A stretch of 64,000 nt of DNA from Escherichia coli (GCF_048403405.1 NZ_CP183131.1), one strand, 5' to 3'. Positions 9,079 to 49,261 are shown, counted from the stretch's first letter. The notes: generated by a model not told the origin, from the sequence alone. Numbers and translations: made by a program.

Positions 9079-9093
9079 GTCCATTTTGGGCAC
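9079..9093. promoter_or_regulatory. GCCCAWTTTGGRCA-type box (candidate AcaCD/SetCD-like activator site)
   Basis: GTCCATTTTGGGCAC preceded by CTGT; one of five similar boxes. Confidence 0.45.
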
Positions 9094-9174
9094 TTCGAGA
9101 GGTCAGGTTACAGATTGACCGCATTTATCCTTTCCAGTGCGTTTATCTGTACCTCAAATTTAGGAGTATCTCTA

Positions 9175-9816
9175 ATGGCAGAAGCACAAGTAGCACTGGA
9201 CACAAACAACGACCGCAGCAACCACTACTCTCGCCCTGTTTTCAAGCAAGTTCTGAAAGTAAACAGCCTCCAAGCTCAGCGCGTCATGGAACGCAGCTTT
9301 GAGCGAGTTTCCAACTCCCTGTTCTCCATCGACGTGATCCTTCGCATCATCGGTGAGCAGGACGAAATCGACCAGGTTGAAACCGTCATCCTGGAACACA
9401 TTTCCAAGGTCTCCGAAGACCTGGACAAAGCTACCGCCCAGCTCAACAAGCTGATGGAAGACAACGGCATCGACATGATGCCCGGCTACACCAACCCGAA
9501 TGAATACACCATCGAGATCAACTCTCCTCAGGTTGCTCAGTTTGCACACCTGATCCGCAAACTGGATACCCTGATGGGGATCGTTGACACTCTCTGGCTG
9601 AACACCGTACTGACCAGCAAGCAGCGCACCGACGCCACTTACCAATGGCAGCAACGCCTCATCAAGCTGGCCGGTCGAATCATCGGCATCGAGAAACGGG
9701 CTCGCATTTCCGCCCACAGCAAAGGCAAAGAAGGTGAAGTGGCCGAAGCCGCTCCGGAATCTGCAACCGGCGACAAGGAAATCGCAGACGAAGCCGAGAA
9801 AACAAAAGCAGCATAA
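9175..9816 (+). CDS. hypothetical protein (213 aa)
   Basis: AGGAG 8 nt before ATG at 9175 (ORF-track frame 9115..9816); followed by a terminator. Confidence 0.6.
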   Translation: MAEAQVALDTNNDRSNHYSRPVFKQVLKVNSLQAQRVMERSFERVSNSLFSIDVILRIIGEQDEIDQVETVILEHISKVSEDLDKATAQLNKLMEDNGIDMMPGYTNPNEYTIEINSPQVAQFAHLIRKLDTLMGIVDTLWLNTVLTSKQRTDATYQWQQRLIKLAGRIIGIEKRARISAHSKGKEGEVAEAAPESATGDKEIADEAEKTKAA

Positions 9817-9832
9817 CCCAGCCCAAACCTTT

Positions 9833-9858
9833 GCCCCTCGCCCGAGGGGCTTTTTTTT
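9833..9858 (+). terminator. rho-independent terminator (GCCCCTCG/CGAGGGGC + T8)
   Basis: GC hairpin followed by TTTTTTTT. Confidence 0.75.
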
Positions 9859-9938
9859 GTCTTTTATGGTTGCATTTTTTGATGCTGTGATATTATCGAA
9901 GTAAATCAGATTCAACTCAGGTAAGAACGGAGAACAAC

Positions 9939-10799
9939 ATGAAAAAGGCTTTAATCACCACCGTGGCTCTGGCTGTAGCAGCTCTATCTGGCTGTGCATC
10001 CACCAGCAGTTACGAACCCACAGCGTACAAAACCAATCACAGTCGCGCTTACAACATCGCGGAGGCCGGTGGCCTGGTAACAGGCATCCAAGACGCTTCT
10101 GTTCCGCGTGACAAGCTGGAGCGTCTGACCGACACCAAAACGTTTGGGGCAGCCTACGTGCTGTCTGGCTACATGTCCCCTCAGCTCGGAATGACCGACT
10201 GGCAAGGTGGCTTGGTCAACCTTGCGAACTGGGCTATCGGCCCCAAACAGCATGGCGCTCGCAATAGCTTGATCGCTTGGATGCCTGCTAACGAAGCAGT
10301 TTCACCGGCAGACGCTCAGGCCAAATTTCTTTCACATGTGAAAGTTTCCATTGAGTCAGCGCTGACTGATTTGGGTGCCAATTTCACGCTTCTGTATGAC
10401 AAAGATGGTCGCCTAACCTATCAGTTCTACAAGAATGAATGGGGTTGCCCGACGTGGGTGAACGGACAAAGTAAGGTAGCTGACATGTGTTCCGTTAAGG
10501 TGAAAATCGTGGAGCCTCGCCTAGGGTCAGCTCCTAATTTTGTCTCTGGCGTTCAAGGTACAGCGTATGCCTTCACATCAGGCCATGAGACCGCATACAA
10601 CTTTGTGAATGTCGGTAATGGGGCAGCAAGCCATGCTCCTCAGCAAGCGATCTACGCAGCTATTAGCAAACAGCTACCAGCTTGGGCCTACCTCTACCTT
10701 GCTCCAAAATCGGTTGAGCTGGATAATGGCGAAAAAGTTGCTTTCCCTTACCTTCTTGATCAGGGAAAAGCAGAGTTATTTGTTTACCCAGAAGCGTAA
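9939..10799 (+). CDS. lipoprotein (lipobox LSGC), function unknown
   Basis: MKKALITTVALAVAALSGCAS signal peptide. Confidence 0.65.
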   Translation: MKKALITTVALAVAALSGCASTSSYEPTAYKTNHSRAYNIAEAGGLVTGIQDASVPRDKLERLTDTKTFGAAYVLSGYMSPQLGMTDWQGGLVNLANWAIGPKQHGARNSLIAWMPANEAVSPADAQAKFLSHVKVSIESALTDLGANFTLLYDKDGRLTYQFYKNEWGCPTWVNGQSKVADMCSVKVKIVEPRLGSAPNFVSGVQGTAYAFTSGHETAYNFVNVGNGAASHAPQQAIYAAISKQLPAWAYLYLAPKSVELDNGEKVAFPYLLDQGKAELFVYPEA

Positions 10800-10811
10800 T
10801 CAATCTACATG

Positions 10812-10838
10812 AGAAAGGGGCCGAAAGGCCCCTTTTTT
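10812..10838. terminator. bidirectional terminator hairpin (GGGGCCGAAAGGCCCC) between lipoprotein gene and traN
   Basis: A-run / hairpin / T-run shared by convergent genes. Confidence 0.7.
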
Positions 10839-13648: not shown

Positions 13649-13751
13649 TTCAACCTTCCCATGCTATCTGAGAAGACAAGGGCCACCTGTACGTGTAGTG
13701 GCCCTTTTGGGGCATAATCTAAAATGCCCGTGCAAATTCGTTAGGGTCTGC

Positions 13752-17496: not shown

Positions 17497-17510
17497 TACT
17501 GTCTCCCTGG

Positions 17511-19958: not shown

Positions 19959-20662
19959 TCAACACTCTCCAACCATGATTTCAGGTTCTTCGGACGTCCT
20001 TTGCTGACACGACCATCCGGAGCAACCACGAACGGAACGCCCTCAATCCCAATGAAATGAGCTGTCAGCAGCGTTTGATCGTATTGGCCGGGGTCGCAGG
20101 TTTCTTTTGAAGGAAGGGAACCCAAGGTGTTGTTCATCAGCGCATCGAGCGCGTGGGTTTTGTCTTTCGCGCAGTACAAGTTCTTTGCCAAGCGGTTGGA
20201 CTCAGCACCCAGAGCAGGAATCACGATAAATTTAAAGGTGTAATCATCCACCAGCGATTTGGCATCACCCATGAGCTGATGGCAAACCGCGCATCTAGGA
20301 TCGACAAAGACCACCACCTCTTTGTCACCACGCCCCATCGAAACGGTGTTCAGCGTGTCCACATCCATGCCCATGCTCTTGAAGTGGATACGCTCCGCTA
20401 CATCCCTCATTTGGGACATCGTGTTGAGGGGCTTCTTGCTCCACAGGTCGTAGATTTGTCCTGAAATAACAAATCGCCCGTTTTCAGAGAGGAACATGAT
20501 CTGCCCATCACTTTGGACGGCTCGAACCCCTTTGATGGGTAGCTCTACGATGTCCTCTATCTTCGCCGCTCTGGGATCGGTGATTTCCAATTTCGATGAC
20601 GCATGAGCCGTGCCGGTAATAATCCCGAACACCATCAGCGCCCCGAGTAATTTTGTCCGCAT
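19955..20662 (-). CDS. dsbC: DsbC-like thiol:disulfide interchange protein
   Basis: Signal peptide; thioredoxin CxxC (DPRCAVCHQL); stop overlaps traC start. Confidence 0.8.
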   Translation of the reverse strand: MRTKLLGALMVFGIITGTAHASSKLEITDPRAAKIEDIVELPIKGVRAVQSDGQIMFLSENGRFVISGQIYDLWSKKPLNTMSQMRDVAERIHFKSMGMDVDTLNTVSMGRGDKEVVVFVDPRCAVCHQLMGDAKSLVDDYTFKFIVIPALGAESNRLAKNLYCAKDKTHALDALMNNTLGSLPSKETCDPGQYDQTLLTAHFIGIEGVPFVVAPDGRVSKGRPKNLKSWLESVE

Positions 20663-20738
20663 GTCTATCCCCTAAGATTGGATTACTGGATGCTGGGCAG
20701 TGTATCCGGGGGAGGGAAATAGACTCGCCTCTGTAATA

Positions 20739-20754
20739 GCCCAATTTGGACAAT
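20739..20754. promoter_or_regulatory. GCCCAWTTTGGRCA-type box ~77 bp upstream of dsbC start
   Basis: GCCCAATTTGGACAA preceded by CTGT. Confidence 0.45.
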
Positions 20755-20766
20755 TCCAGCGCGATA

Positions 20767-20796
20767 CAAAAAAAAGCCCGGTCTGAACCGGGCTTT
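20767..20796 (-). terminator. rho-independent terminator after the giant gene
   Basis: AAAGCCCGG...CCGGGCTTTTTTTT on minus strand. Confidence 0.7.
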
Positions 20797-20810
20797 GAGA
20801 GGAATGAACC

Positions 20811-23800: not shown

Positions 23801-26342
23801 GGTCAATAACCTGGCGAATTGTCCATGATTCAGCCGAGAGCTTGGCCGTCCCTTTCCAGGTATTGATGTCCACAACCAAGATGGGTGAGTTCGGCGCGGA
23901 GGTCATGACAAGAAGACTGGAAGAGCCGACCACATCAGGAACAGCCGGTTTAACCGGAATGCTCAAACGACCACCTGACGCACCGAAATCATGTTGGCTC
24001 ATGATCCCCATTGTCTGGCCCGGCTCGATACGCACCCCATTCACCACCAGCGGCACTTTCGCATCAGAACGGAGGGTCGCAAACACGTCGTATGAACCTG
24101 TCACGACAGCACCATCACTGAGCGTCAGCGGCTTGGTCTCGATGATCCGCTTGCCATCTGCATGAACAAATTCATGAGTGACAGCGGGGACCATAACCTT
24201 GCCATCCATCCCATCCGCCAGCATCACCTGACGCGGTTTGTACTCGAAGCCAACCGCCTTTTGAACCGCGTTGCCTTGTGCGTCCTCACCGGAAACAGTC
24301 AGCGTGTAAGATTCCCCTTCCTTCAAAGACGGGAACATTACCGGGTACTCAAGGCGGAATCGACCTTTCGACTCCTCACGCCAAGACAACTGCACCTTGT
24401 CATCGGCTGGGCCTCCGACGAGGGCAATAGAGGTCAGCTTAGGACTCGGGTCGGCAGTATCAGTCAAGGTGATTACAACATCATCCAAAGACTGGATTGG
24501 TGCTCCATCACTGATCGATACGGTTAGTGTCGGCGCTGAATTATCTATGCTCATAGCATATTGGGAGCCAGTGAATACCTGCTTAACCTCATTACCGAAA
24601 GCATCTTTAGCTACGAGAGATATGCCGGTATATGTGCCCTCTGACAGATTCTCAGCAGAAAATGTGAAAAACCAATCATTTGTGCTACTACGAAGAACTT
24701 CAGTACGAGACAACGGACGTTCTTCGCCAGTCGAGGTTATCGCAGACGCACTTGAGTTGTTAGAAATAACCCACTGGTTAACACCCCAACCGTCAAATGA
24801 ATCAGGCTCACGGAAATGAGCTTTAAAAATCCGCCCATTTCGTTCTAACCCAGCAATTTCAGGAGGGTTAAGGTCATAGCAGAACGTTGCCCCAATCCGA
24901 TCAGACGGAAGTTCAGGCTTCCCTTCCGGTCGAGACCAATATCCAGGCCATGAACATGAGCGCCCACTGAACGATATATCCGTATCCACTTCTGCATAAG
25001 AAGCATTTGCCGGAATTTTAGTAGTAGGCAACCAAGATCCCCATAACTCCTGAGCGTAAGGTCTCGGCTCAACATGAAATCTCAGTTTTTTATAATGGTT
25101 AACTGAGCTCATATTAATGGTTTCACCGCGGACCCACTGACCATCATCCCTAAGATATTCAACATACTTACCGATGGGAGCCAAGCTAACCGATGGATCA
25201 GCTTTCACACTGACGGATGTATTACCAAGAGAGTTCATAACCCAGTCGTAAATAATAAACGACTTAGTTTTTGTCCCATGTTGCTGGAATACATCAGCTT
25301 GCGTCTGCCGATAATCATATGTACCGTCTTCGGCAATGATATTGCCTTCAATACAGTTTTTATAATCACACCAGTTACCGCTTTGAGCACCGTAAGGTGA
25401 AGAAGGATAGGAGTTTGTTTTGGGTATCCGGTAGAGCACCCTGTAGGTATCGGAATAAATGGTCATTCCGTTCTGATAAGGCGCAAAACCTGATAGGGCC
25501 TGACCATTAACCTTAAAAGTTGAGGCCTGCGGGTTCTTAGGGTCATACACTGCTACTGGCTCAGGATTCTCTCCAGACTTTGCACCTACTGAATCCCAAG
25601 CAATAGGATAGGCTATTGACCCTTTGTTCCCTGCTTTATCCAGGGCCTCGAAATGAAGCGTATATAGATCCTCCCCATTAGGGAACACAGTGCTCCAGTT
25701 CAACAACTGGCCTTGGCCGTTGGCGTAATTAACCGAGACAACAGGACTCCTCTTGCCTTTGCTATCTACAGCATACGCCTGTATAGAGGAAACCGAAGAA
25801 CCGGCATCAGATGCAGACACATCTATACCTGAAAATCGGTTAGGACCTCGCAGTAGCGTTCCATCAGAAAGCGCCCGGTTCCATTCCCCTTTTACTGTCA
25901 CGTTTGCCAAACTTGGCGCTGTCGTATCGACTTGAAGCGGGTATTCATCAGTCTGAACGGAACTTCCGTCTGACGCCAGTATTTCGGCCCTTAGTTTGTA
26001 GACTCCCTCGGAAGGAGCCGGTAGTTGAAGTTCCGCACCATAGTAGGATTTTCCACCCACTGTGATGCGATCAGTAGCCCCAAGAAGGTGGCTGGTCGCT
26101 GTCGAAACCACTGTTCCATCCGACCGAATCACCGAAATCTTTACCTTTCGGTCGATACCGGCACTCAAGGCAAACGAGATATTGCCCGTTGGGTTGGCAT
26201 AGTTGGCATTCGGAGTCAGAGACCGTTGCGTACCATCTGGAGCCTTAAAGGTGTATTCCAGCAGCTCTGCATGAGCAGCACCAGCGGTAAGAACCGCCAG
26301 AGCCCCAAGCATCGCCGGAATTTTAGGCTTGAAATTGATCAT
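20811..26342 (-). CDS. giant secreted protein (~1,840 aa), probably built of repeated beta-rich / Ig-like modules; putative surface adhesin
   Basis: Single uninterrupted ORF; start set at ATG with GGAGA RBS giving signal peptide MINFKPKIPAMLGALAVLTAGAAHA; T/S/G/V/D-rich repetitive composition; own terminators on both sides. Confidence 0.7.
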   Translation of the reverse strand: MINFKPKIPAMLGALAVLTAGAAHAELLEYTFKAPDGTQRSLTPNANYANPTGNISFALSAGIDRKVKISVIRSDGTVVSTATSHLLGATDRITVGGKSYYGAELQLPAPSEGVYKLRAEILASDGSSVQTDEYPLQVDTTAPSLANVTVKGEWNRALSDGTLLRGPNRFSGIDVSASDAGSSVSSIQAYAVDSKGKRSPVVSVNYANGQGQLLNWSTVFPNGEDLYTLHFEALDKAGNKGSIAYPIAWDSVGAKSGENPEPVAVYDPKNPQASTFKVNGQALSGFAPYQNGMTIYSDTYRVLYRIPKTNSYPSSPYGAQSGNWCDYKNCIEGNIIAEDGTYDYRQTQADVFQQHGTKTKSFIIYDWVMNSLGNTSVSVKADPSVSLAPIGKYVEYLRDDGQWVRGETINMSSVNHYKKLRFHVEPRPYAQELWGSWLPTTKIPANASYAEVDTDISFSGRSCSWPGYWSRPEGKPELPSDRIGATFCYDLNPPEIAGLERNGRIFKAHFREPDSFDGWGVNQWVISNNSSASAITSTGEERPLSRTEVLRSSTNDWFFTFSAENLSEGTYTGISLVAKDAFGNEVKQVFTGSQYAMSIDNSAPTLTVSISDGAPIQSLDDVVITLTDTADPSPKLTSIALVGGPADDKVQLSWREESKGRFRLEYPVMFPSLKEGESYTLTVSGEDAQGNAVQKAVGFEYKPRQVMLADGMDGKVMVPAVTHEFVHADGKRIIETKPLTLSDGAVVTGSYDVFATLRSDAKVPLVVNGVRIEPGQTMGIMSQHDFGASGGRLSIPVKPAVPDVVGSSSLLVMTSAPNSPILVVDINTWKGTAKLSAESWTIRQVIDPVKIYALPESGVPCRFTTKEDVAMAADPIRDPVCLLQWDRTPDEAEQTTQDNNGMKVAGLVGQAVSIGEQPVEYSLYLFSGDGSKVKVGSGSQNLTVTTAYGSVGYTPIDDIAQVNRVIEDFDVNFKQSKGPDCSITLSADRAKNEAANKAVGSASRTCLFEWQQIPDGLVQDPLSESPSLSGSLAENGDHPLGWRVSIFTRNGTRVTLNDETFNVEAVDPPAPTVELASDYNFKDNIYLVPMTGNYLGDAIINSERADLDIAISRNSDVLESETFTPGWGATNKVYRRINTDERALWEETTYKVNAAYNKVPDVKTEVVYRAISAPSDSIRPIVEVKGDTAIDTQALPVRVLIRDQYKPDGDYDANTMGVWKVRLIQQKAYNETVALTDYAEASNGEAQFSVDLSGVDTSSVRIAAEAVLESPVEGYNRTELSIRPAFLTVLRGGAIGAGVEARKLSGEAPFTAVFKLSLDDRQDLRATGQVVWETSKDDGKTWEQFIPEDRYKYQLVKTFDKGEYQVRAKVVNVNSGAEKYTEAVSVVAYDKPDIAVIGPTTLFVGSEGKYTANLTLNDEPISGGNAIVEWSTDGGKTYAQTGDSITLSSDEETRYRLWARVRSATAPADDGYAYEVAKTAVDFRAVKAPRPYVTGPRVIETGKKYVFKAETSLPYRGMDVKLNGFFTLPDGSIVQGDTAEYVPSDTDLNQATVETKYTTWIEGYRDQGAEASHSLRSRVWQYVWPSFGMQVRKNADVAPATITASVRPIAFNGKLEEPTYEWELPEDAVIQDQRQDIVRSFVINEPGDYNIKVTVRDARGHETVIEQPLKIGQAEPYAIDLQYSGSNKYEREPLDVLLRPYISGGHPRDRISTRVYSVDGTPLESSGYYGRATLGAGEHSIKLKITSEMGHEAEGEVNINVAENKLPACSLSSRETVGSWIVYANCEDTDGRMKSYEWTIAGELQSISSDRVTISKGTYETMPTISLVGVDDSGGKSEAVTMN

Positions 26343-26481
26343 CGCATTCTCCATTCGTTTTGAGTTACAAGAACCCAATGCTGGAGGTTACGGGAGGGAG
26401 TGCATAAACATGGGCTGTGGAAGTGCCCTTTTTGAGCAAATAAGGAAATAGTTGGAATTTGTTATGACTGGACTTTTTGCC

Positions 26482-26510
26482 AAAAAATAAGGGCAGCTTT
26501 TAGGCTGCCC
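26482..26510 (-). terminator. rho-independent terminator after traA
   Basis: GGGCAGCC...GGCTGCCC hairpin + T-run on minus strand. Confidence 0.7.
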
Positions 26511-26542
26511 CTATCACCCGTTGATTAACGGCAAGGTGTCTT

Positions 26543-26926
26543 TTACACCCCCAGGCCATTGCTGAGTTGCACAACAGCCGGGATGACCTTCTCTGCATGT
26601 TCCAGAGTAGCAGACATGATGGATTCCACTACGGTCGGGGAGTTGTACAGGCCCATACCGCCACCGATACCCATAGCGAAAGCCATGAGGCTCTGGCGAG
26701 CGATACCACCAACAACACCGACCAGGATCATCGCACCCGCAACGATTCGACCCAAAGTACCTTGGGTCCAATCCTTGAGAGTTACCCATACGTCGTCAAA
26801 CGCTGTACCACCAGTACCAGCGTGGGCCTGATCCGGCACGAGCAGGAAGGCTACCACCATCAACCCCAGGAAGAGGAAGAGTGCGTTGTTTTTACTTGAG
26901 GCATTCGCCAACTGATTTGCGTTCAT
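26543..26926 (-). CDS. traA: TraA-like pilin precursor
   Basis: Small, very hydrophobic, glycine-rich; last gene of traLEKBVA block; start set at ATG with AGGAG 9 nt upstream. Confidence 0.7.
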   Translation of the reverse strand: MNANQLANASSKNNALFLFLGLMVVAFLLVPDQAHAGTGGTAFDDVWVTLKDWTQGTLGRIVAGAMILVGVVGGIARQSLMAFAMGIGGGMGLYNSPTVVESIMSATLEHAEKVIPAVVQLSNGLGV

Positions 26927-26938
26927 CAAGAACATCTC

Positions 26939-27517
26939 CTATTTGGTTGTTTCAGACTTCGGTTCGTGTTGTACCGTTTGCAGCGGTCTCAAAACTGGCT
27001 CACTTTGCGGTGTGCCATCCCCAATCACCCACCTGCGCGGTTCGATTTCGGTATAGACATACCCTGTCACGATGAGATCACCATTGGTGTCCTCCCAGGG
27101 AGCTACCCAAATCCGCATAACCTGTGCTGGTGTACGAATTGGAATCGGGCGATCCGGAAGACGCGGTGCGACATAGTTGTCAATCACCGGGTCTCCGGAG
27201 CTAGATGAGTTCGCTGAAACGTTTGAGGAACCTTCGCCATCCGCTTCCGCTTTGGCCTCGACTTCCTCTGGTTTCATTGGGCGCGGGACATTTCCGTCAT
27301 TGGTTGCGGCGTAAACGTCTCGCGCTGACATACACTGAACACCATTCGGCATTCCCGGACAGCTATACTCATCCTTGCCGATGTTGAACGTCGAACAGCC
27401 CGACAAAATAAGTAGCGCTGCACCCACCCCCAACATCTTTGCGGATCTTACTGCCTGTTCCTTTTGAGCCTCGCCTCTGGAACTGCCCTTTCTGGTCAAA
27501 ATGTTCAAATTTTTCAT
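26939..27517 (-). CDS. traV: TraV-like T4SS lipoprotein
   Basis: Lipobox LILSGCS; conserved cysteines; true start may be an internal ATG. Confidence 0.7.
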   Translation of the reverse strand: MKNLNILTRKGSSRGEAQKEQAVRSAKMLGVGAALLILSGCSTFNIGKDEYSCPGMPNGVQCMSARDVYAATNDGNVPRPMKPEEVEAKAEADGEGSSNVSANSSSSGDPVIDNYVAPRLPDRPIPIRTPAQVMRIWVAPWEDTNGDLIVTGYVYTEIEPRRWVIGDGTPQSEPVLRPLQTVQHEPKSETTK

Positions 27518-28830: not shown

Positions 28831-29744
28831 TGGGCACCTCCCAGCAGCGATGGACGCTTAGACGTTGGTGCGAGACCACGCTTCTGCTTCTTCGCCACAT
28901 AGATCTCCGTCTTCTGGCCGGGCTCAAGCACGTTAAGCGGCCACGTAGTCACCGCAGCCACATCCCAGCTCCCACACAACGCCTCTTTGAACTCAATAGG
29001 CTGATCAGAGACGTTCAGGGCGACACCGATGAACACGTTAAGGTGGTGGCCCATCATGTATTGCCCCTTGCTAAAATCCACCTTTACCCCAGGATGAGCG
29101 CAGCTCGGCACCGCAGCACCAGCAGGGATGCGGTTCAACGTGTAACCTTGAGGGACTTCACCAAGAGCAATCTTTCGGAATACTGACCGGATGGTTTCGA
29201 CATAAGGCTGGCTCTGTTCCCAGGTCTCAGCCTTGGTATTGGCAAAAGCACCAGTGATACCTACACCACCATCGAGCTTGAGAAAGACTTCTCTGGGCGG
29301 AATACGACGGGGAACCATCGTCAGGCTGAGAGCTTGGGCTTCCGAGCCTTTTTCAGTAATGAACATAGTCACCGGATACTGCTTATCCGTGGCGACATAG
29401 ACCACATTCTCTTTGATGCAGACCTCACCACACTGGCCGTTATCCGTCGCCCCGGTCAGAGATGTTGAAACGATCTCAGGATTGCTGAAAGGCGTGACGA
29501 TTCGGTTCGGATGACCAACGGCTATCGGGATGATCTGGTTAACCCCCGGCTTCATCGTCAGTAAGGGGTTTTCATTCATGCTGCCCACAACCTCATGGGA
29601 GCTTTGTCCTGACGTCACAGGGGCAGGAACATCCTTTTTCATAACACTGGCCGGGACAACAGGAATGTCATCCGAGGCATAGGCCATTGAAGTTCCAAGC
29701 GCCAAGGACAGCGCCAGGAGCGAAAGTTTAGCGTTGTTCTTCAT
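28827..29744 (-). CDS. traK: TraK-like T4SS secretin-like protein
   Basis: Signal peptide; synteny traE-traK-traB; overlapping stops and starts. Confidence 0.65.
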   Translation of the reverse strand: MKNNAKLSLLALSLALGTSMAYASDDIPVVPASVMKKDVPAPVTSGQSSHEVVGSMNENPLLTMKPGVNQIIPIAVGHPNRIVTPFSNPEIVSTSLTGATDNGQCGEVCIKENVVYVATDKQYPVTMFITEKGSEAQALSLTMVPRRIPPREVFLKLDGGVGITGAFANTKAETWEQSQPYVETIRSVFRKIALGEVPQGYTLNRIPAGAAVPSCAHPGVKVDFSKGQYMMGHHLNVFIGVALNVSDQPIEFKEALCGSWDVAAVTTWPLNVLEPGQKTEIYVAKKQKRGLAPTSKRPSLLGGAQ

Positions 29745-30632: not shown

Positions 30633-30776
30633 AGCAACCCTCTTCTTTTCCTAGTGGCCTGTATTCTCATTCAGGGTCACTGATTTTCTGCCACGGCTTC
30701 GCGCCCTTTTCGGGCACTTCCAGCGACAAATAAAAAAAGGCGGCCTAAGCCGCCTTTTTTGCGTTTACTGGATCGG

Positions 30777-31142
30777 TTATTGATTTTGAGGAACCGCTTC
30801 CGAATGTTTTTCCGAAGCCGCAACGCTAACTTCATTGGCTGGTCGGGCCACCCCCAGAGTTTTCACTTCCTTGTTAGCATTGGCTTTAAACTTGAACATC
30901 AGACTGTACGCCGCCAGCAGGAAGAAGCTGAGAATGCCCCAGTAGGTCTGAACCGTGCCCAGAGCCTTGGCCGGGTCACTTGCAGCTCTGTTGGCCGTAT
31001 CAGCAGCCAACTTAACCCACTGACTCCAGTCAAAACCTGCCGCAAAAGCAGACAGCCAAAACGCGACGGCCACTGGAACGATGAAGATGCACATCAGCAC
31101 CGCGTTCATCAAAAACCAGAAAAATTGTTTATTAAGGTTCAC
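30777..31142 (-). CDS. hypothetical membrane protein
   Basis: Two predicted TM helices; probable GTG start after GGAGGA; first sizeable gene downstream of the 31371 box. Confidence 0.5.
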   Translation of the reverse strand: MNLNKQFFWFLMNAVLMCIFIVPVAVAFWLSAFAAGFDWSQWVKLAADTANRAASDPAKALGTVQTYWGILSFFLLAAYSLMFKFKANANKEVKTLGVARPANEVSVAASEKHSEAVPQNQ

Positions 31143-31150: not shown

Positions 31151-31297
31151 CCATTAACCTAGAAAATTGAATGCGTGTTCCAGGTTCATCCCTGCAACAA
31201 CACCTATAACGAACATCACCTGCCAGACAAGGAACTGCCAGGAGATGAATGAACCAGATGAGCTTTCGCTTTCTCTGACGTGAGCTTGTGCGGACAT
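31151..31297 (-). CDS. possible small membrane protein (48 aa)
   Basis: ATG preceded by GGAGGG; hydrophobic segment FLVWQVMFVIGVVAG; below ORF-track cutoff. Confidence 0.3.
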
Positions 31298-31370
31298 AGA
31301 CCCTCCAAATAACTTGTCGTCATCACGGAGTAATCGTCTCTTAATTGATCAATCTAGGAACAGTGCTGTT

Positions 31371-31385
31371 ACGGCCCATTTTGGG
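31371..31385. promoter_or_regulatory. GCCCAWTTTGGRCA-type box ~74 bp upstream of the small-ORF/traL operon start
   Basis: GCCCATTTTGGGCAC preceded by CTGT. Confidence 0.5.
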
Positions 31386-31433
31386 CACTTTATGGAGGTT
31401 TATTCGAGGAGATGATAAGAGCGGGAGGCGAAA

Positions 31434-34163: not shown

Positions 34164-36029
34164 TTACTGGGTCAATATGGGCAGACGGCCTTTTACGATT
34201 GTTCCGCCTGAAATTTTGGCTATGTATTCCAGGTTCGGAAGCATTCCCAATAACTGGGCTGGGAACAGATCAGCTTCCTCCTCCATCAAACGCTCGCCTT
34301 GGTTGCCTCCGTGCATAATGGGCTCCTTGCCATCCGAGTTCTGGCCTTGAGTCCGCATGACGTACTTGAGCCGGGTCTTCGGCAGGTTATCCGCGATATA
34401 CTCCTGGGTTTCACCATCGACGATACGCAGAGCAAACGTGTTGTTGATGTTCCCCAACACCTGGAGCGCTTTGTCTTTGCTACCCAGTCGAGCTGCGAAG
34501 TCAGCAAAAGTCTGAGTTGCAACGAAAAGACGAAGTTTCGCACCGCGACCTTTGTTCAGGAGCTGGATGAACGGGTCGTTGATCACCTCGGCAGCCTCAT
34601 CAACAAAGATATTTACGGGTCTGTTGTTGACGCCGTAGTTGTATCTGTCACCGGCAACCGCTGTCAGGTCTGACAGGAAGATGGACCCCATAGCACTACC
34701 AACCATGTTGTCGGTCAGGGAGTCGAGCCCCAGATAAGCAACTTGAGCGTTGTTGATGATTTTTGCGGAATCGGTGATCTGGCGTTCGTCGCTCAGATCA
34801 GATGAGTCTGGAGACAGCAGAGGGCCTAGCTCCCCGGACGTCAGCATATTCATGATCGGCAGGAGGTTCGCCACCATCTTGGAGAAGTGGGTTTGGTCGT
34901 GCTGGAACATCGACAGCAAGCCTTCCAGGTCAGAGTTCGGGTGCTCAGGTTGGATGATGTCGTAGTAGAACTTCATCAACGCGAAAGCGATCTTCTCACG
35001 CGAACCGTTTTTGGCTTTTTCCAAGTAAGCCGCTGCTTCTGCCTCCCAGTCGGGCATAACTCGCTCTGAGTAAGCCTGAACGGCCTTGATGACCAAGCCA
35101 GCAGCGCCACCTTCAAGGAATCGGCGGAGCTTTGTCAGGTTGGGACGATCATGAGTGATGACCAAGCCCTGAGCGATGTTGTTCAGTGCCTGCCATCCAA
35201 ATGATTTGAACGGGTCGGCCCCTGCTTCGGACGGGATCAACGCTGCCAAACGACTTGCGATTTCAGTCACGCGGGTGAAGTTACGCAGAGGGTCGATACG
35301 CACCGACTCTTCCGGGAATGCTGGATGAAATGAGACGAATCTTTCCGGCTGCCCCATAGCTTCACAGGCACGTCGGGCATTGTCCCGCATCTCCTTATCC
35401 CCTTTCGGGTCTATGATGATCACGGCTTCCCCACGCAGAATGGCCTGTGAAATCAGGATGTCGAACATACGGGTCTTGCCCGAGCCGGTGGTCCCAACGA
35501 TCAGCGAATGCCCCTCAGTGTGCTTGAGTGGCTGCATCAGCTTCTCTTCTTTGGGCTCTACCCCGTGAATCCAGGGCTGGCCGATTGGCAGCTCCTTTTT
35601 CTTACCCTGTATCTTCCGGACAACCTTTTTGACCGTGGACTCTCTCCCTACGATGGAAGTCCAGTCGCGTTTCAGGATCTCAAACACGCGCTGGGCATGG
35701 CGGTTTTCCCACAGGAACCCACTACCAAGCCACATATCGTCCGGCGTGTCCTTGATGTACTTTTGGAGCTCCGCAATGGAAATAAACTCCAGATCACGCC
35801 CCTTCAAATGCTTTTGGAGCAGGTGAAGTTTGATAGCCTTGGGCAAACGAGCCATCGCCATCACGCCACAGATCCCCGTCATCCAATAGAATGGCTCCGG
35901 CGGCATCGTGCTGACTTGCTCTACGGCCAAAGCCGCGCCGGAGGCGGCAAGCCAGCCTGCTACAGCATTTTTTTCATAGTTGGGCCGCCACGGCATCTCG
36001 TAGGCGAGCGGGTCATAACTCATTGTCAT
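34164..36029 (-). CDS. traD: TraD/VirD4-family type IV coupling protein
   Basis: Walker A VGTTGSGKT; N-terminal TM helices; overlaps traI stop. Confidence 0.9.
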   Translation of the reverse strand: MTMSYDPLAYEMPWRPNYEKNAVAGWLAASGAALAVEQVSTMPPEPFYWMTGICGVMAMARLPKAIKLHLLQKHLKGRDLEFISIAELQKYIKDTPDDMWLGSGFLWENRHAQRVFEILKRDWTSIVGRESTVKKVVRKIQGKKKELPIGQPWIHGVEPKEEKLMQPLKHTEGHSLIVGTTGSGKTRMFDILISQAILRGEAVIIIDPKGDKEMRDNARRACEAMGQPERFVSFHPAFPEESVRIDPLRNFTRVTEIASRLAALIPSEAGADPFKSFGWQALNNIAQGLVITHDRPNLTKLRRFLEGGAAGLVIKAVQAYSERVMPDWEAEAAAYLEKAKNGSREKIAFALMKFYYDIIQPEHPNSDLEGLLSMFQHDQTHFSKMVANLLPIMNMLTSGELGPLLSPDSSDLSDERQITDSAKIINNAQVAYLGLDSLTDNMVGSAMGSIFLSDLTAVAGDRYNYGVNNRPVNIFVDEAAEVINDPFIQLLNKGRGAKLRLFVATQTFADFAARLGSKDKALQVLGNINNTFALRIVDGETQEYIADNLPKTRLKYVMRTQGQNSDGKEPIMHGGNQGERLMEEEADLFPAQLLGMLPNLEYIAKISGGTIVKGRLPILTQ

Positions 36030-39004: not shown

Positions 39005-39084
39005 GTAGGTTGACCATATTCCTATCGTATTTCTCGTCGCTACATGCTCTCAAAACACCTTTAGATCGCACACACGCCTATCTG

Positions 39085-39099
39085 TCCAATTTGGGCAGT
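39085..39099. promoter_or_regulatory. GCCCAWTTTGGRCA-type box ~81 bp upstream of traI, in divergent intergenic region
   Basis: GTCCAATTTGGGCAG preceded by CTGT. Confidence 0.5.
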
Positions 39100-39171
39100 T
39101 TGAGAAACCAGCTTTCCATCCCCCCCCTTTTAGAATGGGCTCATCGACAATTTTTGATGAGGAACGACACG

Positions 39172-42196: not shown

Positions 42197-42210
42197 TAGA
42201 GGAATTAAGT

Positions 42211-42699
42211 ATGTTTGGAACAATCATTTTAACTGCGATGCTCACCACCAGCTCAGCCACTGCCGAAGATGCAGGGAAGAACATCGCCTCAGGCTTGGCG
42301 GCGGCATCCGCCAGCCAAATGGGGCAGGCCGTAATGCCAACTTTAGCTACCAGCTCGGCCATTGCAAAAAGCGCAGGTAAAGGCATGGTGTCAGGTTTGG
42401 CTGCGGCGACTGCCAGCTACATTCCCCAAGACGAGCTGAGCTTTACTCGAAGCTATAAGAACTCTGAGGCTGTGGATATGGCAAAGGGCCTGGGGACATT
42501 GAAAGAAGCGCCTGAGTTTCTCTACGTTGTTACAGACGTAAATGCCAACATGGCGGTCAAATGCAAGCGCGTCTGGGAGCCTCAATCTCTGGCTTTAAGT
42601 CCAGTGATTGTTGAGCTGGTGGAACTACGTAAGACGAACAACAAAGACAGCTACGAACAAGCACTATCCCACCTCGATTGTTCAATGTTCACAGACTAA
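42211..42699 (+). CDS. hypothetical secreted protein with Ala/Ser-rich repeats
   Basis: GAGGAA RBS; signal peptide MFGTIILTAMLTTSSATA. Confidence 0.55.
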   Translation: MFGTIILTAMLTTSSATAEDAGKNIASGLAAASASQMGQAVMPTLATSSAIAKSAGKGMVSGLAAATASYIPQDELSFTRSYKNSEAVDMAKGLGTLKEAPEFLYVVTDVNANMAVKCKRVWEPQSLALSPVIVELVELRKTNNKDSYEQALSHLDCSMFTD

Positions 42700-42708
42700 A
42701 ACAATTAA

Positions 42709-42730
42709 GGGGCCGATGGCCCCTAATTTT
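42709..42730. terminator. terminator hairpin (GGGGCCGATGGCCCC + T-run) between convergent operons
   Basis: GC hairpin followed by TAATTTTT. Confidence 0.7.
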
Positions 42731-42790
42731 TAATAACCCAATTTCTTTTGATACCTGATTTTCCTACCAAGCACAGTTGTCATACACCAT

Positions 42791-43069
42791 TCAATTCACA
42801 TGGATAGCGAATACTTCAACCGGACAATCTCCAAAGTGCGGGTGCGTTATAACACTCCTTGAGAAGCCACGCCAAGGGCGAATCTCTATCCTGGACATAT
42901 CTCCAGCCTTTGGGTAGCCACACTTAACATGGACTTCATCATACTCGCGCCCCTCTAGTCTTTTTATCCAGTAGTCTGTAACGAGGCGATATTCATCTGG
43001 TTTTTCTCCAGATTTGATCTGATCGAAGTAAATCTTTTTTACGGGCAGATGAAGTATTCTCTTTTTCAT
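42791..43069 (-). CDS. ASCH-like (PUA-fold) domain protein
   Basis: GxKxxExR-type motif IKSGEKPDEYR; ~92 aa. Confidence 0.5.
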   Translation of the reverse strand: MKKRILHLPVKKIYFDQIKSGEKPDEYRLVTDYWIKRLEGREYDEVHVKCGYPKAGDMSRIEIRPWRGFSRSVITHPHFGDCPVEVFAIHVN

Positions 43070-43094
43070 AATCACCACCTGATAGCCCATCAGA

Positions 43095-43301
43095 CTATCT
43101 AACTATTCGACAAAACATCCCTTTTTCAATTTCTGTCTCTCTCGCCTCATGGGCCAATACAATATCCGCGATAACACGAATATTCCCTTCATAGTTGCGA
43201 ATGGCCGCATCCCTCATCGTGTCTAAAGTGTCCTGACACTTCGCTCGCCTGAATTTAACGAGCCAACTTTGCCGATCTATCTTGTCCACACCAAATCCCA
43301 T
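43095..43301 (-). CDS. hypothetical small protein (68 aa)
   Basis: ORF contiguous with neighbours. Confidence 0.45.
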   Translation of the reverse strand: MGFGVDKIDRQSWLVKFRRAKCQDTLDTMRDAAIRNYEGNIRVIADIVLAHEARETEIEKGMFCRIVR

Positions 43302-43919
43302 TTAGCGAACCATGTATCCAGCTTTTTTGGCCGCAGCATCAAGCTCGGAGGAGAAGTTAACGTCGGACTTTTCTGCCGCGTTATAGAGGGCTCCACACTT
43401 GGGCCATGAGCGTCCTACCAGTTTCATCGCCAACGCATCCGCCAGCATTTCTCGGATCTGTGTTTCAGCCTCACCAAAATCGGCCAGAGTTTCGTCTATG
43501 CCCGACTCTTCCATCAGCTCGATGAGCTGTGGTTGTTTGAGCCAGACGCCTGTTTGCATTTCCAACTGATCTCTTGCATCGGCCACCAATTGGCGTTCAA
43601 GGGTTACGCCATTCACGGTCTTAACAAATTGCTTTGGCTGACGCTTTACCTTTTTTGGCCTGGACACATCAGAGATAACCGTCACCGGCTTCCCACGCAG
43701 TTCACGCGGCAACGGTCCACTTAGCCCCAGAACTAAGCGACGAGCGTACTCATGCTCGTATGGTTTCAACCCTCGACCTTCACGGTACATTTCAGTATCC
43801 ACCAGCAGATCACCGCGCAGCCTCGCATTTTTCCGCACTTGTTCGGACAAGACCGATTTACCCTTCCCGCTGGCTCCCATTACGAGCGAGTGAGATTCTA
43901 CTTTGTTATCAAAAAACAT
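43302..43919 (-). CDS. P-loop NTPase, dNMP-kinase-like
   Basis: Walker A LVMGASGKGKSV near N-terminus; 205 aa. Confidence 0.55.
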   Translation of the reverse strand: MFFDNKVESHSLVMGASGKGKSVLSEQVRKNARLRGDLLVDTEMYREGRGLKPYEHEYARRLVLGLSGPLPRELRGKPVTVISDVSRPKKVKRQPKQFVKTVNGVTLERQLVADARDQLEMQTGVWLKQPQLIELMEESGIDETLADFGEAETQIREMLADALAMKLVGRSWPKCGALYNAAEKSDVNFSSELDAAAKKAGYMVR

Positions 43920-44012
43920 AATTCCGCCCCCAAGGAGGTGTTGCTATAAAACATGGTTTGAACATCCGTATTTTCACGGCAATAACCGCCGGATAATGCA
44001 AGACTCCCAAAC

Positions 44013-44231
44013 CTAAATAGGTCTCCAGGTGATGACATCGAAGTCATAGCTGACTTCCGAGTTGTCGTCCGCCGTTCGCCACGAACAATCATCTTCCTGA
44101 ACATGGATCAAGTCGTACTCAACAATTTTGCCCGACCAACATCCTTTAAGCTGGCAATGAACAGGCACACCGACGACCGGCATCTTGTCGTTGACGCTGA
44201 TCCACGGTTCTTGCTTTTGATCCAGATCCAC
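44013..44231 (-). CDS. DUF551-like small protein
   Basis: WISVNDKMP motif typical of phage DUF551 proteins (recalled). Confidence 0.45.
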   Translation of the reverse strand: MDLDQKQEPWISVNDKMPVVGVPVHCQLKGCWSGKIVEYDLIHVQEDDCSWRTADDNSEVSYDFDVITWRPI

Positions 44232-44234
44232 CGG

Positions 44235-44516
44235 TTAGTCCTCTATGAACGATTTAATGGATCGCCCATCAAAAAACAGTTTCCCAGTTCCTGATACCGA
44301 ATGTACTTCTGGAGCTGCCTTCCCTTTCAGGAGTTTCTGATAGCGCACCGCGTCTTTGAGCTCAGAGATCCTGACGCCAATGAGTGTGGCCGTCTCCTCA
44401 ACTGTTAAAATACGGTCCCAAAAGCTGGTGGCGCTGTTATTGCGCCCACCGATACTCTGGGCAACGCACTCTGTTCTGGCCGCTTTTCCCTTTGCCATTG
44501 GCAATGTCCTCTTCAT
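44235..44516 (-). CDS. hypothetical protein, possible HTH
   Basis: ORF; start uncertain because of overlap with upstream gene. Confidence 0.4.
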   Translation of the reverse strand: MKRTLPMAKGKAARTECVAQSIGGRNNSATSFWDRILTVEETATLIGVRISELKDAVRYQKLLKGKAAPEVHSVSGTGKLFFDGRSIKSFIED

Positions 44517-46520: not shown

Positions 46521-46523
46521 TGG

Positions 46524-47024
46524 TCAACCTCTTTTCTTCTTGTTTTGCTCGCGCTTCACCATTGCTCCAGCAGCTTTCAGAAGTCTCTGGTTCTCCGCCA
46601 GCTCCTCTTGGAGTTCCTGAGTATCCTCTTCTGTCTGAGGCTTTTTCAGCTCGGCCTCGCAATATTGGACCTCTTCCTGCAAGCTGACTTTCGCAAACTT
46701 GAGAGCGGCCAGTCGCGTCGTATAAACGCCAAAAGGCAATTCGCCACCTTCCCGGAACTGCTTCAAACACCAGCTCGGTATAGATGGCAACCAACCAAAG
46801 TCCCCATTCTTCCGTGACCTTTTCCCCCACGTAATCCCATCTAACTTTTGGGCAAGATTGACATAGCGTTGATCGCTGGTTGAGTTGCGTCGTTTCTGAA
46901 TAGAGCGAACTATCCACTCTGTAACCTCGACCTTTGCTTTATCATCATCAGAGATGTAATAAAGGGCTGCGTACAACACAGCGCCTTTACGAATGACTGA
47001 TGGTGGGTATGCCTGGGCTTTCAT
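46524..47024 (-). CDS. hypothetical protein (166 aa)
   Basis: ORF in operon. Confidence 0.5.
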   Translation of the reverse strand: MKAQAYPPSVIRKGAVLYAALYYISDDDKAKVEVTEWIVRSIQKRRNSTSDQRYVNLAQKLDGITWGKRSRKNGDFGWLPSIPSWCLKQFREGGELPFGVYTTRLAALKFAKVSLQEEVQYCEAELKKPQTEEDTQELQEELAENQRLLKAAGAMVKREQNKKKRG

Positions 47025-47032
47025 CTATCCCC

Positions 47033-47365
47033 CTATCGCTTTTTCTGTCCGACAAGACGGAGATGATCGGCGGCCAAGTCATACTGCTCGTTTTTGTCGC
47101 GGCGGCGGAATCTGTCAAAAAACTTCCCTCGTGGCAGGGTTTCTTCCATAGCGATCAGGCGGTTCAGCCACACTTCTTGAGGTAGCATCCCTGCTGGAGT
47201 CGGCCCGAGCTTACGTCCTTCCTTGACGTGCTCCATTGTTTGCGTGGCAGTAAAAATCGCACCACCAAACTTTCTCCACTTGAATTGCAGGGGCATATCT
47301 GGAGACTCATCCAGCATCAATTTCTTATTGGTTTGTTCTGTCACGACAATTACTCCACCATCCAT
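47033..47365 (-). CDS. hypothetical protein (110 aa)
   Basis: ORF in operon. Confidence 0.45.
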   Translation of the reverse strand: MDGGVIVVTEQTNKKLMLDESPDMPLQFKWRKFGGAIFTATQTMEHVKEGRKLGPTPAGMLPQEVWLNRLIAMEETLPRGKFFDRFRRRDKNEQYDLAADHLRLVGQKKR

Positions 47366-47874
47366 TCTTCACTAAGCAGGAACGCCCAGCGCTCTTCTGC
47401 TTTTTCTGGGTTGTCTTTGGCCTGTTTGATCATGATCTCGGCGGCGTTAAAGCCTACCTCTCCACTGAACCGGCCCCATGAATGGCTATGCCACTCGCGC
47501 ATCACACTTCGGCCAAGCGATGCAAGTTCTGGACTTACACCCTCATGGAGGGCATAGAGCTCCCAAGCATCCCACCCGTATCGTAATAGGTTGTGCCCTG
47601 GGGCGTTAAAGGCCTGAGCAGCCTTGAACCGCTCTCCAGGCTCCTTCCCTCTAACATCCACACCCTGGAGCACCAACCCCATTACCACTTCAATGACCGG
47701 CTCGCGTTGCTTCTTTGCCAGCTCGATGGCAGCCACCAGCATTGCTTTGGCGTCAGCAAATTTCCCATGCCCTTGGCACATACCGCAGGTTTCTTTGGAA
47801 GGGGAAAAGTCATAAACACCGGAACCAGCACAGAGGCGGCATGTCATGTCAATCATGGGCTCTTCTCTCCTCAT
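47350..47874 (-). CDS. protein with DnaJ-type zinc-finger repeats (CRLCAGSG, CGMCQGHG)
   Basis: Two CxxCxGxG motifs near N-terminus. Confidence 0.55.
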   Translation of the reverse strand: MRREEPMIDMTCRLCAGSGVYDFSPSKETCGMCQGHGKFADAKAMLVAAIELAKKQREPVIEVVMGLVLQGVDVRGKEPGERFKAAQAFNAPGHNLLRYGWDAWELYALHEGVSPELASLGRSVMREWHSHSWGRFSGEVGFNAAEIMIKQAKDNPEKAEERWAFLLSEEWMVE

Positions 47875-48556
47875 ACTCTTCGATGCGCTCTTTCAGACGC
47901 TGAACCACTGGTGCGAGCTCAGGGATAGCTTCCGCTTCCTCAAGCGTGTATCGCTTGTCTTCCTGGTAATCGACTATTTGAGGAGGCCTTGGCTGTTTAG
48001 GGAACTCAGCAAAGTCATTCAGCGACATCGAGGTAGGAAGTCCTCCTTCAATCTCACCTTTTTCGTTGAGTGACTGGGTGACGATAAGCTGTGTTCCGCC
48101 CACCTCGGTATCAAAGCGGTCATCAAAGCGCTCACCGATAGTCCAGCCGCCACGGCCAAGAACACAGGTCGTACTCATACGTAGGCGATTGAATGCTTTA
48201 GCGTCATCCCAGTTCAAAGGATTTTCATCCATGAGGAAAAAAGGCGCTTCGTCCCGAACGAACACCTTGGACTTGGCGTTATCGAAGATCGGCCCAAACA
48301 CCCCCTGCTGGAGGTATGGTTCGACCTTCTCTGCAAGATCCTGGTGCCCTTGAGAACGCAGCGCCTCATAGAGCTGGGTGATTGTTTGTTTGCCGGTGCC
48401 CGGAAGGCAGGACAATACTGTCTGCTTTTCCTCGTCACTCAGGCTTACCATTCTGGACAAAAAGCTGACTACCAGCTCGTTGTGCCCATCGACCGTTTCA
48501 ATGTTGAGCTTGTTCTCGTCCATCTTCTTCCTCAGTAATCGGTTCGATAAATTCAA
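47849..48556 (-). CDS. hypothetical protein (235 aa)
   Basis: ORF in operon. Confidence 0.5.
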   Translation of the reverse strand: MNLSNRLLRKKMDENKLNIETVDGHNELVVSFLSRMVSLSDEEKQTVLSCLPGTGKQTITQLYEALRSQGHQDLAEKVEPYLQQGVFGPIFDNAKSKVFVRDEAPFFLMDENPLNWDDAKAFNRLRMSTTCVLGRGGWTIGERFDDRFDTEVGGTQLIVTQSLNEKGEIEGGLPTSMSLNDFAEFPKQPRPPQIVDYQEDKRYTLEEAEAIPELAPVVQRLKERIEEYEERRAHD

Positions 48557-48866
48557 TGGAGTCCATGCTTACATGACTGATAATGGCTTTCAGGCCGCAG
48601 CAGTCGCATGGTTCAAAGGTCAGTTCTGATCCCTTGGGAGACTGATGCGTGACCGTTGCCACAGCCCCTAGAGGGATCACCCCCCAGCCGTTTTTTAGTA
48701 CCCGAGTAGTTCTGACCAGCCGACCTTTGTACTCTCGTTTCAGTTTCGGATGCGGCACTACCGCATATCGCTTACTCATTTCGGTCCCCTTGTACCAAAG
48801 GCTCGACAACCAGCTCTTGAGCTTCGTCCCAGTCGGACACCTTTGCATCACCAAACGCAAAGGCAA
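48498..48866 (-). CDS. hypothetical protein (start probably internal ATG ~48779)
   Basis: ORF; overlap with upstream gene suggests later start. Confidence 0.4.
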   Translation of the reverse strand: MPLRLVMQRCPTGTKLKSWLSSLWYKGTEMSKRYAVVPHPKLKREYKGRLVRTTRVLKNGWGVIPLGAVATVTHQSPKGSELTFEPCDCCGLKAIISHVSMDSIEFIEPITEEEDGREQAQH

Positions 48867-49158
48867 TTCGCATAGCCACTGTCGGCCTGCCTATTTTCAT
48901 CAAGTAAGCCGCAGCACCGGCACACATCGACTCTTGTCCCGAAGGTGCATAGTTACCCTCTTCATCCCATTCACCACCTGACTTTGAATGCACGGTCTTG
49001 TGGCAATGAAACGTCGTCATGTCGTTTTCAACGATGTCGTTGATGATGCCTTCTAATCGCCCAGGGACCAGCTCGATAGCGCCCTCCTTCCGGAATGGAC
49101 AGTTGGCGCAAGGTTTCTTCAAACGGAGATGATTTGCTTGCTTTGGCATACATATCAC
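48772..49158 (-). CDS. cysteine-rich small protein (CANCPFR...HCHKTV), first gene of the operon
   Basis: ORF ~89 bp downstream of a box. Confidence 0.5.
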   Translation of the reverse strand: MICMPKQANHLRLKKPCANCPFRKEGAIELVPGRLEGIINDIVENDMTTFHCHKTVHSKSGGEWDEEGNYAPSGQESMCAGAAAYLMKIGRPTVAMRIAFAFGDAKVSDWDEAQELVVEPLVQGDRNE

Positions 49159-49246
49159 TTTTACAGTATCATTTTATGATTCTATGATATAGCCATATTC
49201 CGTGTAGTCAATATCTCACTAACAATTACTTTCTATCGGACGCTTA

Positions 49247-49261
49247 CGCGCCCATTTTGGG
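49247..49261. promoter_or_regulatory. GCCCAWTTTGGRCA-type box ~89 bp upstream of the 49158 operon start
   Basis: GCCCATTTTGGGCAG. Confidence 0.5.

Follow-up and report, generated by a model that had tools for sequence, protein, structure and literature searches.

The window analysed here is a 64,000-nt stretch of Escherichia coli DNA (GCF_048403405.1, NZ_CP183131.1), and positions are counted from its first letter. It is the backbone of an incompatibility group C (IncC, or IncA/C2) plasmid, with the transfer genes on the minus strand and a resistance island at the right end. Over a 20-kb piece, it matches hundreds of IncC plasmids, typed MOBH/MPF_F, at 100% identity. The window is also syntenic, with equal gene order, with pVCR94deltaX (NC_023291), the experimental prototype of the IncA/C plasmids (Carraro et al. 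2014, PMC4207636). We studied a short palindromic box that recurs upstream of the transfer operons and of several other genes, and found it at nine loci (Table 1). With a probability that we put at about 97%, these boxes are operators of AcaCD, a heteromeric FlhC/FlhD-like master activator that is encoded elsewhere on IncA/C plasmids. An earlier note on this DNA had described five of the boxes and read them as the regulon of an FlhDC-like master activator. This central reading is correct, and the regulon is the published AcaCD regulon; the repeated box is a rediscovery from raw sequence of something already known and established since 2014.

On pVCR94deltaX, Carraro et al. reported 17 AcaCD peaks from chromatin immunoprecipitation with exonuclease treatment (ChIP-exo), a motif, transcription start sites (TSSs) from 5′ rapid amplification of cDNA ends (5′-RACE), and RNA sequencing (RNA-seq) with and without AcaCD (PMC4207636). 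According to that study, the site is ~29 bp long and spans approximately positions -64 to -36 relative to the TSS. It has the core palindrome GCCC-N5-GGGC (typically TGCCCAAAWTGGGCA), which is often followed by TnACAG. We rebuilt the plasmid from NC_023291 and extracted the coordinates of Table S3 of Carraro et al., which give the same box. At nine loci, the window has 29-mers that are identical to pVCR94deltaX sites of that table. These loci serve 12 promoters (vcrx035/036, vcrx059/traI, vcrx068, traL, traV, vcrx076, dsbC, traN and acaB/vcrx087), which correct recognition of the box annotates in the window. The promoter DNA at the boxes (-120 to +220) is 99-100% identical to that of pVCR94deltaX; between acaB and vcrx087 there are a few substitutions and an indel of 1 nt. 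Because the promoter DNA is nearly identical, transfer of the pVCR94deltaX experimental data is justified, and the TSS positions in Table 1 were transferred in this way.

Table 1. AcaCD boxes, leader modules and other features of the 64,000-nt window, with their pVCR94deltaX counterparts
Feature	Position in window	Strand	Box centre	Transferred TSS	pVCR94deltaX counterpart	Remarks
Box of vcrx087 and acaB/vcrx086	9069..9101	both	9085	~9034 (minus, vcrx087); ~9139 (plus, acaB)	65019-65047 (minus-orientation 29-mer)	bidirectional
Box of traN	13691..13719	minus	13707	~13655	60398-60426	
Box of the dsbC-traC...traU operon	20729..20757	minus	20745	~20692	53360-53388	
Box of vcrx076	26415..26443	minus	26431	~26378	47674-47702	
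Box of "traV" (name of Carraro 2014)	27475..27503	minus	27491	~27439	46614-46642	
Box of the traL-traE-traK-traB-traV-traA operon	30693..30721	minus	30709	~30656	43396-43424	
Box of vcrx068-vcrx069	31364..31392	minus	31380	~31327	42725-42753	
Box of traI(mobH)-traD and vcrx059-topB	39074..39106	both	39090	~39038 (minus, traI); ~39143 (plus, vcrx059)	35010-35043 (both 29-mers)	bidirectional
Box of the vcrx036-vcrx044 operon	49240..49272	both	49256	~49204 (minus)	20377-20410 (both 29-mers)	bidirectional; plus orientation faces vcrx035, no TSS mapped
vcrx068	31154-31297					47 codons; annotation of identical plasmid
vcrx069 coding sequence	30777-31142					annotation of identical plasmid
acaB (vcrx086)	9175..9816	plus				
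vcrx087	8561..8881	minus				106 aa; membrane-anchored, hydrophobic N-terminal segments (tblastn)
Leader modules, window	~9034-8882, 7995-7853, 3160-3022	minus				loops at 9003, 7960, 3125
Leader modules, pVCR94deltaX					65113, 66155, 70987, 75423, 79822, 83604, 86742, 89857	
Resistance island, ARI-B type	~52800-64000					right end (52-64 kb); sul2, aph(3'')-Ib, aph(6)-Id (strAB) first
blaTEM	56404-57264					within resistance island
ISCfr1-type IS1182-family transposase gene	58085-59482					within resistance island
aac(3)-II	62236-63162					within resistance island

A position weight matrix (PWM) trained only on seven pVCR94 sites outside the window and six published SGI1/MGIVmi1 sites places exactly these nine loci at the top, at 20-32 bits, and scores the next locus at 12.6 bits. 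The maximum in 200 Markov shuffles averages 13.9 bits. A full 19-site PWM selects the same nine loci, and all nine match the AcaCD motif derived from ChIP-exo. Beyond the published set, no further AcaCD site scores above noise in the window, including the resistance island at 52-64 kb; the best extra matches (12.6-13.2 bits, at 34733 and 38510) lie inside the null range.

ChIP-exo and 5′-RACE data cover the traN, dsbC, vcrx076 and traL boxes, and divergent TSSs were mapped at vcrx059/traI and acaB/vcrx087 (PMC4207636). The highest ChIP-exo peak is that of the traV box (19463); that of the acaB/vcrx087 box is 19009, with TSSs at pVCR94deltaX positions 65081-83 and 64976-78 (PMC4207636). Upon induction of AcaCD, RNA-seq values of the genes downstream of these boxes rose from 0-282 to 218-3445 (PMC4207636). 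Scores are also high for single boxes: the acaB/vcrx087 box reaches 33.9 and 26.6 bits, and the PWM trained outside the window gives 24.3 bits for traN and 26.6 bits for vcrx076, the gene for a 1843-aa Ig-like protein.

The boxes lie on an IncA/C-type (ACL) backbone, upstream of orthologous operons, and they persist in related plasmids. An IncA plasmid of ~91% identity keeps all of them. In the pAQU1-like plasmid pC1579 (~70% identity in traI), 77-100% of the 13-bp core is kept at the traI, traL, traV, vcrx076 and dsbC promoters, the flanking DNA of these five boxes is 18-51% identical, and the -10 elements are in ungapped register. The dsbC and traL boxes are conserved in both IncA and pC1579, and the core of the traI/vcrx059 box is 92-100% conserved in three divergent plasmids. 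In pVPH1 and pK520, where the Vcrx087 protein is 45-53% identical, the acaB/vcrx087 box is found 204-205 nt upstream of the vcrx087 ATG.

Conservation of this kind bears on the explanation that the GCCC-N5-GGGC palindromes match by chance or have a structural role, as short hairpins or terminators between operons. Across divergent plasmids, the core sequence is conserved and does not covary. A 4-bp hairpin could indeed form from the core, and several boxes follow closely on real terminator-like hairpins that belong to the preceding operon (e.g. upstream of dsbC and traL). However, the stem is too short and has no U-tract, the enrichment of the boxes far exceeds the shuffled expectation, their distance to mapped starts is fixed at 51-54 nt, and AcaCD binds the sites in ChIP-exo. 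We therefore regard chance or structure as a highly improbable origin of the boxes.

The arrangement of the promoters is uniform. In all 17 mapped promoters (published 5′-RACE, Table S3 coordinates), the core centre lies 51-54 nt from the TSS, and the 29-nt motif ends 35-37 nt upstream of the TSS. In the window, -10-like hexamers are in register with the transferred starts (TATCCT, TATATT, TAGCAT, TAACCT, TAAGAT, GAGAAT, TAGAAT and others), and no -35 element is apparent at the box promoters. We adopt the proposal of the original authors that bound AcaCD would substitute for the -35 contact and recruit sigma-70 RNA polymerase, in the manner of a class II activator. Such class II-type activation by AcaCD is plausible from the promoter layout, and direct contacts between AcaCD and the polymerase are so far a proposal. 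Between them, the nine boxes drive the operons for relaxase and coupling protein, for the pilus and for mating-pair functions, along with acaB and several genes whose function is unknown. Owing to the palindromic core, three of the boxes act in both directions. Reverse-orientation motifs at dsbC, traL and vcrx076 were also considered as promoters, and rejected: they score from the palindromic core only, and published 5′-RACE shows no start there.

Several points weigh against identifying the boxes as AcaCD operators with a class II layout. The palindrome centre at -52 is farther upstream than the textbook class II site (-41.5). Binding, starts and AcaCD dependence on this particular plasmid would be those of pVCR94deltaX, from which they were transferred. 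The acaCD genes are outside the window (tblastn), and their presence on the source replicon is presumed. Lastly, the vcrx035, vcrx036 and vcrx087 promoters were constitutive in single-copy lacZ fusions (Durand 2021, PMC8373056). AcaCD dependence is therefore partial or debated for vcrx036-vcrx044, which the earlier note called the 49158 operon, and for vcrx087, the gene with the FtsZ-like tail.

The activity of these three promoters without AcaCD (PMC8373056) also fits a different explanation, in which another regulator of the plasmid (AcaB, Acr1 or the H-NS-like Acr2) is the main protein bound at the boxes and the action of AcaCD is indirect. All three of these proteins modulate transfer (PMC4207636; PMC8373056). 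Nevertheless, ChIP-exo with tagged AcaC gave single-nucleotide footprints on the boxes (PMC4207636), AcaCD or SgaCD alone activates promoter-lacZ fusions in plasmid-free cells (PMC8373056), and the reported target of AcaB and Acr1/Acr2 is the acr1-acaDC promoter (PMC8373056), which is outside the window. Given this evidence, it is very unlikely that AcaCD is not the direct ligand.

The earlier note had left the activator as SetCD or AcaCD, and only the second name stands. SetCD is the related activator of SXT/R391-type integrative conjugative elements (ICEs), and the notion that the boxes are SetCD operators has some appeal: SetCD is a homologous FlhDC-like activator that controls orthologous tra operons from promoters with the same class II-like layout. 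The boxes, however, are identical to AcaCD-bound sites, matching them base for base, and the authors of the SetCD study state that its motif "drastically differs" from that of AcaCD (Poulin-Laprade et al. 2015, PMC4344509). The two activators cannot replace each other (Carraro 2014, PMC4207636), a lack of cross-complementation that already refutes this alternative, and the window is an IncC plasmid and not an SXT/R391 ICE. Binding by SetCD thus has next to no likelihood.

The boxes can be compared with those of known systems. The AcaCD regulon of pVCR94 (PMC4207636; PMC8373056) has the same nine 29-mers, the same downstream genes, the 51-54 nt spacing and the three bidirectional sites, and the boxes do not differ; the window is a further copy of this backbone. 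SGI1, MGIVmi1 and related mobilizable islands use the same motif; the SGI1 trhH/trhG site, GGACTGCCCAAATTGGACAGTTTGGGAG, has essentially the traI core. These sites are on chromosomal islands that hijack the plasmid, whereas those in the window are the plasmid's own. Boxes of SGI1-type islands are bound both by AcaCD and by SGI1's own SgaCD (PMC8373056). The boxes set the timing of transfer of IncC multidrug-resistance plasmids and of the SGI1-type islands that mimic them. The SetCD system of SXT/R391 (PMC4344509) is more distant: its activator is homologous (34% identity in the C and 23% in the D subunit), its box adjoins a missing -35 element, and it also has orthologous tra operons and divergent promoter pairs, but its recognition sequence differs and the activators are not interchangeable. 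The FlhD4C2 box of flagellar class II promoters is bound by a heteromer of the same protein family at sigma-70 promoters that lack a -35 element. Its regulon is flagellar and not conjugative, its DNA motif is unrelated according to statements in PMC4207636 and PMC4344509, and no flagellar genes are present in the window.

All five boxes of the earlier note exist, 0-3 nt from where it placed them (9079-9092, 20739-20752, 31374-31387, 39084-39097 and 49250-49263). Its degenerate pattern, GCCCAWTTTGGRCA, matches at 9079, 20739, 31374, 39083/39084 and 49250. With at most one mismatch there are six matches at five loci, versus 0.12 expected (0/100 shuffles). With at most two there are 10, versus 2.23 expected, and positions 13701, 26425 and 30703 are gained. 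Read on the minus (transcribed) strand, the five boxes are TGCCCAAAATGGACAGTTACAG, TGTCCAAATTGGGCTATTACAG, TGCCCAAAATGGGCCGTAACAG, TGCCCAAATTGGACAGATAGGC and TGCCCAAAATGGGCGCGTAAGC. The set is incomplete, given nine loci in the window: the boxes centred at 30709 (traL), 27491 (traV), 26431 (vcrx076) and 13707 (traN) were missed, three of which are already among the two-mismatch matches. The box at 31371 had been assigned to the traL block, which is incorrect. Downstream of it are vcrx068 and then vcrx069, and traL (start at 30632) has its own box. CTGT, which was said to precede each copy, occurs with four of the five: it occupies plus-strand positions -8 to -5 at the boxes at 9079, 20739 and 31374 and overlaps the box at 39084; it is absent at 49250. 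Its reverse complement is ACAG, the 3′ extension of the published AcaCD logo.

The reported distances of 74-89 bp between box edge and start codon were reproduced (dsbC, 77; the gene at 31297, 74-77; traI, 80-81; the gene at 49158/49149, 89-98), as was the distance of ~198 bp between the fifth box and 8881. Constant spacing had been taken to define a regulon. The regulon is real, but the invariant distance is from the box centre to the TSS and not to the start codon; the published starts, as transferred, are 51-54 nt past each box centre, and the 74-89 bp reflect leaders of 24-55 nt. Neither outcome that the note had named as refuting its reading, starts that do not map downstream of the boxes or a motif unlike the activator logo, is borne out by the published data. 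Outliers in leader length are traN (7 nt) and vcrx087 (153 nt), and at traV the box is inside the annotated coding sequence. The fifth box is no exception to the spacing, as had been thought: on the plus strand, it is 90 nt (centre) or 83 nt (edge) from the acaB ATG at 9175, which is the usual distance. While the boxes do lie upstream of minus-strand operons, as described, three of the five reported ones drive both directions. The inclusion of non-transfer genes, namely vcrx036-044 and vcrx087, agrees with our results and is also published. The re-check thus yields the full nine-box map, corrected assignments for vcrx068 and traL, the placement of acaB at the fifth box, and a lead on a leader module that is described below.

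Two of the box promoters raise questions of annotation. The traV box follows directly on the stop of traB and falls, together with the TSS at ~27439, within traV as annotated, at its 5′ end (ATG at 27517, minus strand); the next in-frame ATG, at 27436, is 3 nt past this start. The same geometry is repeated in pC1579. Either traV is annotated too long, or its mRNA is near-leaderless, or the promoter mainly serves traA. At traN, the transferred TSS (13655) is 7 nt upstream of the annotated ATG (13648, minus strand), with no Shine-Dalgarno sequence. The explanation here is either a near-leaderless mRNA or a wrongly annotated start codon.

The activator genes were said to be absent from the window. 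This holds for acaC and acaD, which, like acr1 and acr2, are absent from the 64 kb (tblastn), but acaB, an activator of acaDC, is inside. The acaB product matches PDB entry 6N8B, "transcription regulator AcaB", over its full length (phmmer, E 1.1e-135) and is 97.7% identical to AcaB of pVCR94. According to Hancock 2020, as cited in Durand 2021 (PMC8373056) and in a 2024 surface-exclusion paper, AcaB activates the acaDC promoter and is itself activated by AcaCD. One arm of the activation feedback loop therefore lies in the window. AcaCD would activate acaB from the fifth box and AcaB would activate acaDC, which would close a positive feedback loop. The IncC plasmid NZ_CP023724.1, which shares the resistance island of the window at 100%, encodes all four, AcaC and AcaD under the same protein accessions as in pVCR94 and Acr1 and Acr2 likewise under identical accessions. 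The open reading frame 8561-8881 (vcrx087) was considered as a candidate for AcaB and discarded: its PDB search was empty, and AcaB is the divergent plus-strand gene. On the plus strand after acaB, a strong intrinsic terminator (GCCCCTCGCCCGAGGGGC followed by T8) occurs at 9833-9860. The gene that follows (9939-10799, plus strand, 286 aa) corresponds to sfx (vcrx085), a recently described surface-exclusion lipoprotein that is expressed independently of AcaCD (2024 surface-exclusion paper).

In its minus orientation, the fifth box would express vcrx087 through a structured leader of 153 nt (8882-9034). This leader has a predicted folding energy of -61.5 kcal/mol (z -5.2), and its first 62 nt are 84-85% conserved across divergent plasmids, compared with ~65% for the coding sequence. 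It contains a module of ~130 nt with the core GUG-NGN-UAGCUGG-NCN-CC followed by AAAACAAACAGCA. The module opens with a variable hairpin. Next come a 4-5 bp hairpin whose loop, UAGCUGG, is invariant, and an A-rich stretch with CAGCA at its end; these are followed by a GC hairpin in two tiers, by a hairpin in which the Shine-Dalgarno sequence is sequestered, and finally by the ATG. The core recurs eight times on pVCR94, always on the transcribed strand and with a start codon 82-122 nt further downstream; the window has three copies (Table 1). The 4-bp stem covaries, with UA, CG and AU at one pair and GC and AU at another, and none of 500 shuffles reaches the observed covariation score. The loop GCUG and the downstream CAGC are both invariant, and from their complementarity could form an H-type pseudoknot.

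Rfam gave no match, either for the whole window at the gathering threshold or for positions 2900-9100 at E values up to 1, and a literature search by sequence string returned only unrelated microRNA papers. Among published statements, we found only one that is related: an attenuator of translation upstream of bet in SXT is said to be "also present" in IncA/C plasmids. When representative genomes were searched for the exact pattern, the core turned up in 17 betaproteobacterial contigs from metagenome-assembled genomes (Accumulibacter, Sulfuritalea, Gallionellaceae and others). At the one betaproteobacterial locus examined, the module adjoins helicase/methylase, primase-like, ArdC-like and RadC-like genes. 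Of everything described here, only the module might be new; it is an unexplained lead. A tentative reading, which we consider possible but rather doubtful, is that the 153-nt structured leader explains the 198-bp spacing of the fifth box and that the module, upstream of at least eight genes in the IncC 65-90 kb region of "unknown function" and of primase/ArdC/RadC-type genes in mobile elements of betaproteobacteria, is a cis-regulatory RNA not described before, which would give the AcaCD regulon a post-transcriptional layer. If so, an RNA-binding factor of the plasmid or the host might, for example, act on it and gate establishment genes.

The module copies at 7860-7995 and 3025-3160 (minus strand) are near-identical over ~100 bp and form direct repeats 4.8 kb apart, which flank a block of AAA-ATPase, ssb, bet and exo genes. 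Such repeats could mediate deletion or duplication of the block. Because the copies are near-identical, BLAST searches return multiple places per record.

Vcrx087, whose function is reported as unknown (Durand 2021, PMC8373056), ends in a sequence that resembles FtsZ. The C-terminal sequence EPDWDYLEIPTYLRKGK can be aligned with EPDYLDIPAFLRKQAD, the tail of E. coli FtsZ (pairwise BLASTP versus residues 329-380, E 6e-4), as can QEPDWDYLEIPTYLRKGKELVW with KEPDYLDIPAFLRKQAD, the conserved C-terminal peptide of FtsZ. The tail motif is retained in 45-53% identical homologues from Vibrio and Aeromonas plasmids, while the linker diverges. A PDB sequence search with the C-terminal peptide was empty, and NCBIfam assigned neither the vcrx087 nor the vcrx036 product to a family. 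The vcrx036-044 operon includes genes for a thymidylate-kinase-like protein and a DNA cytosine methyltransferase.

Besides the changes in the acaB/vcrx087 intergenic region, a further difference from pVCR94 is a 4.4-kb insertion that pVCR94 has and the window lacks; it is located between traI and the vcrx036 operon (window 42200-44500 versus pVCR94deltaX 24929-29700). This insertion carries ISAs2, ISPpu12, lspA, a cation transporter gene and cadR. The coordinate offset of the 49256 box relative to pVCR94 is due to this insertion of insertion sequences and cadmium-resistance genes. At the right end of the window, the resistance island is identical to those of Klebsiella pneumoniae IncC plasmids from Taiwan.

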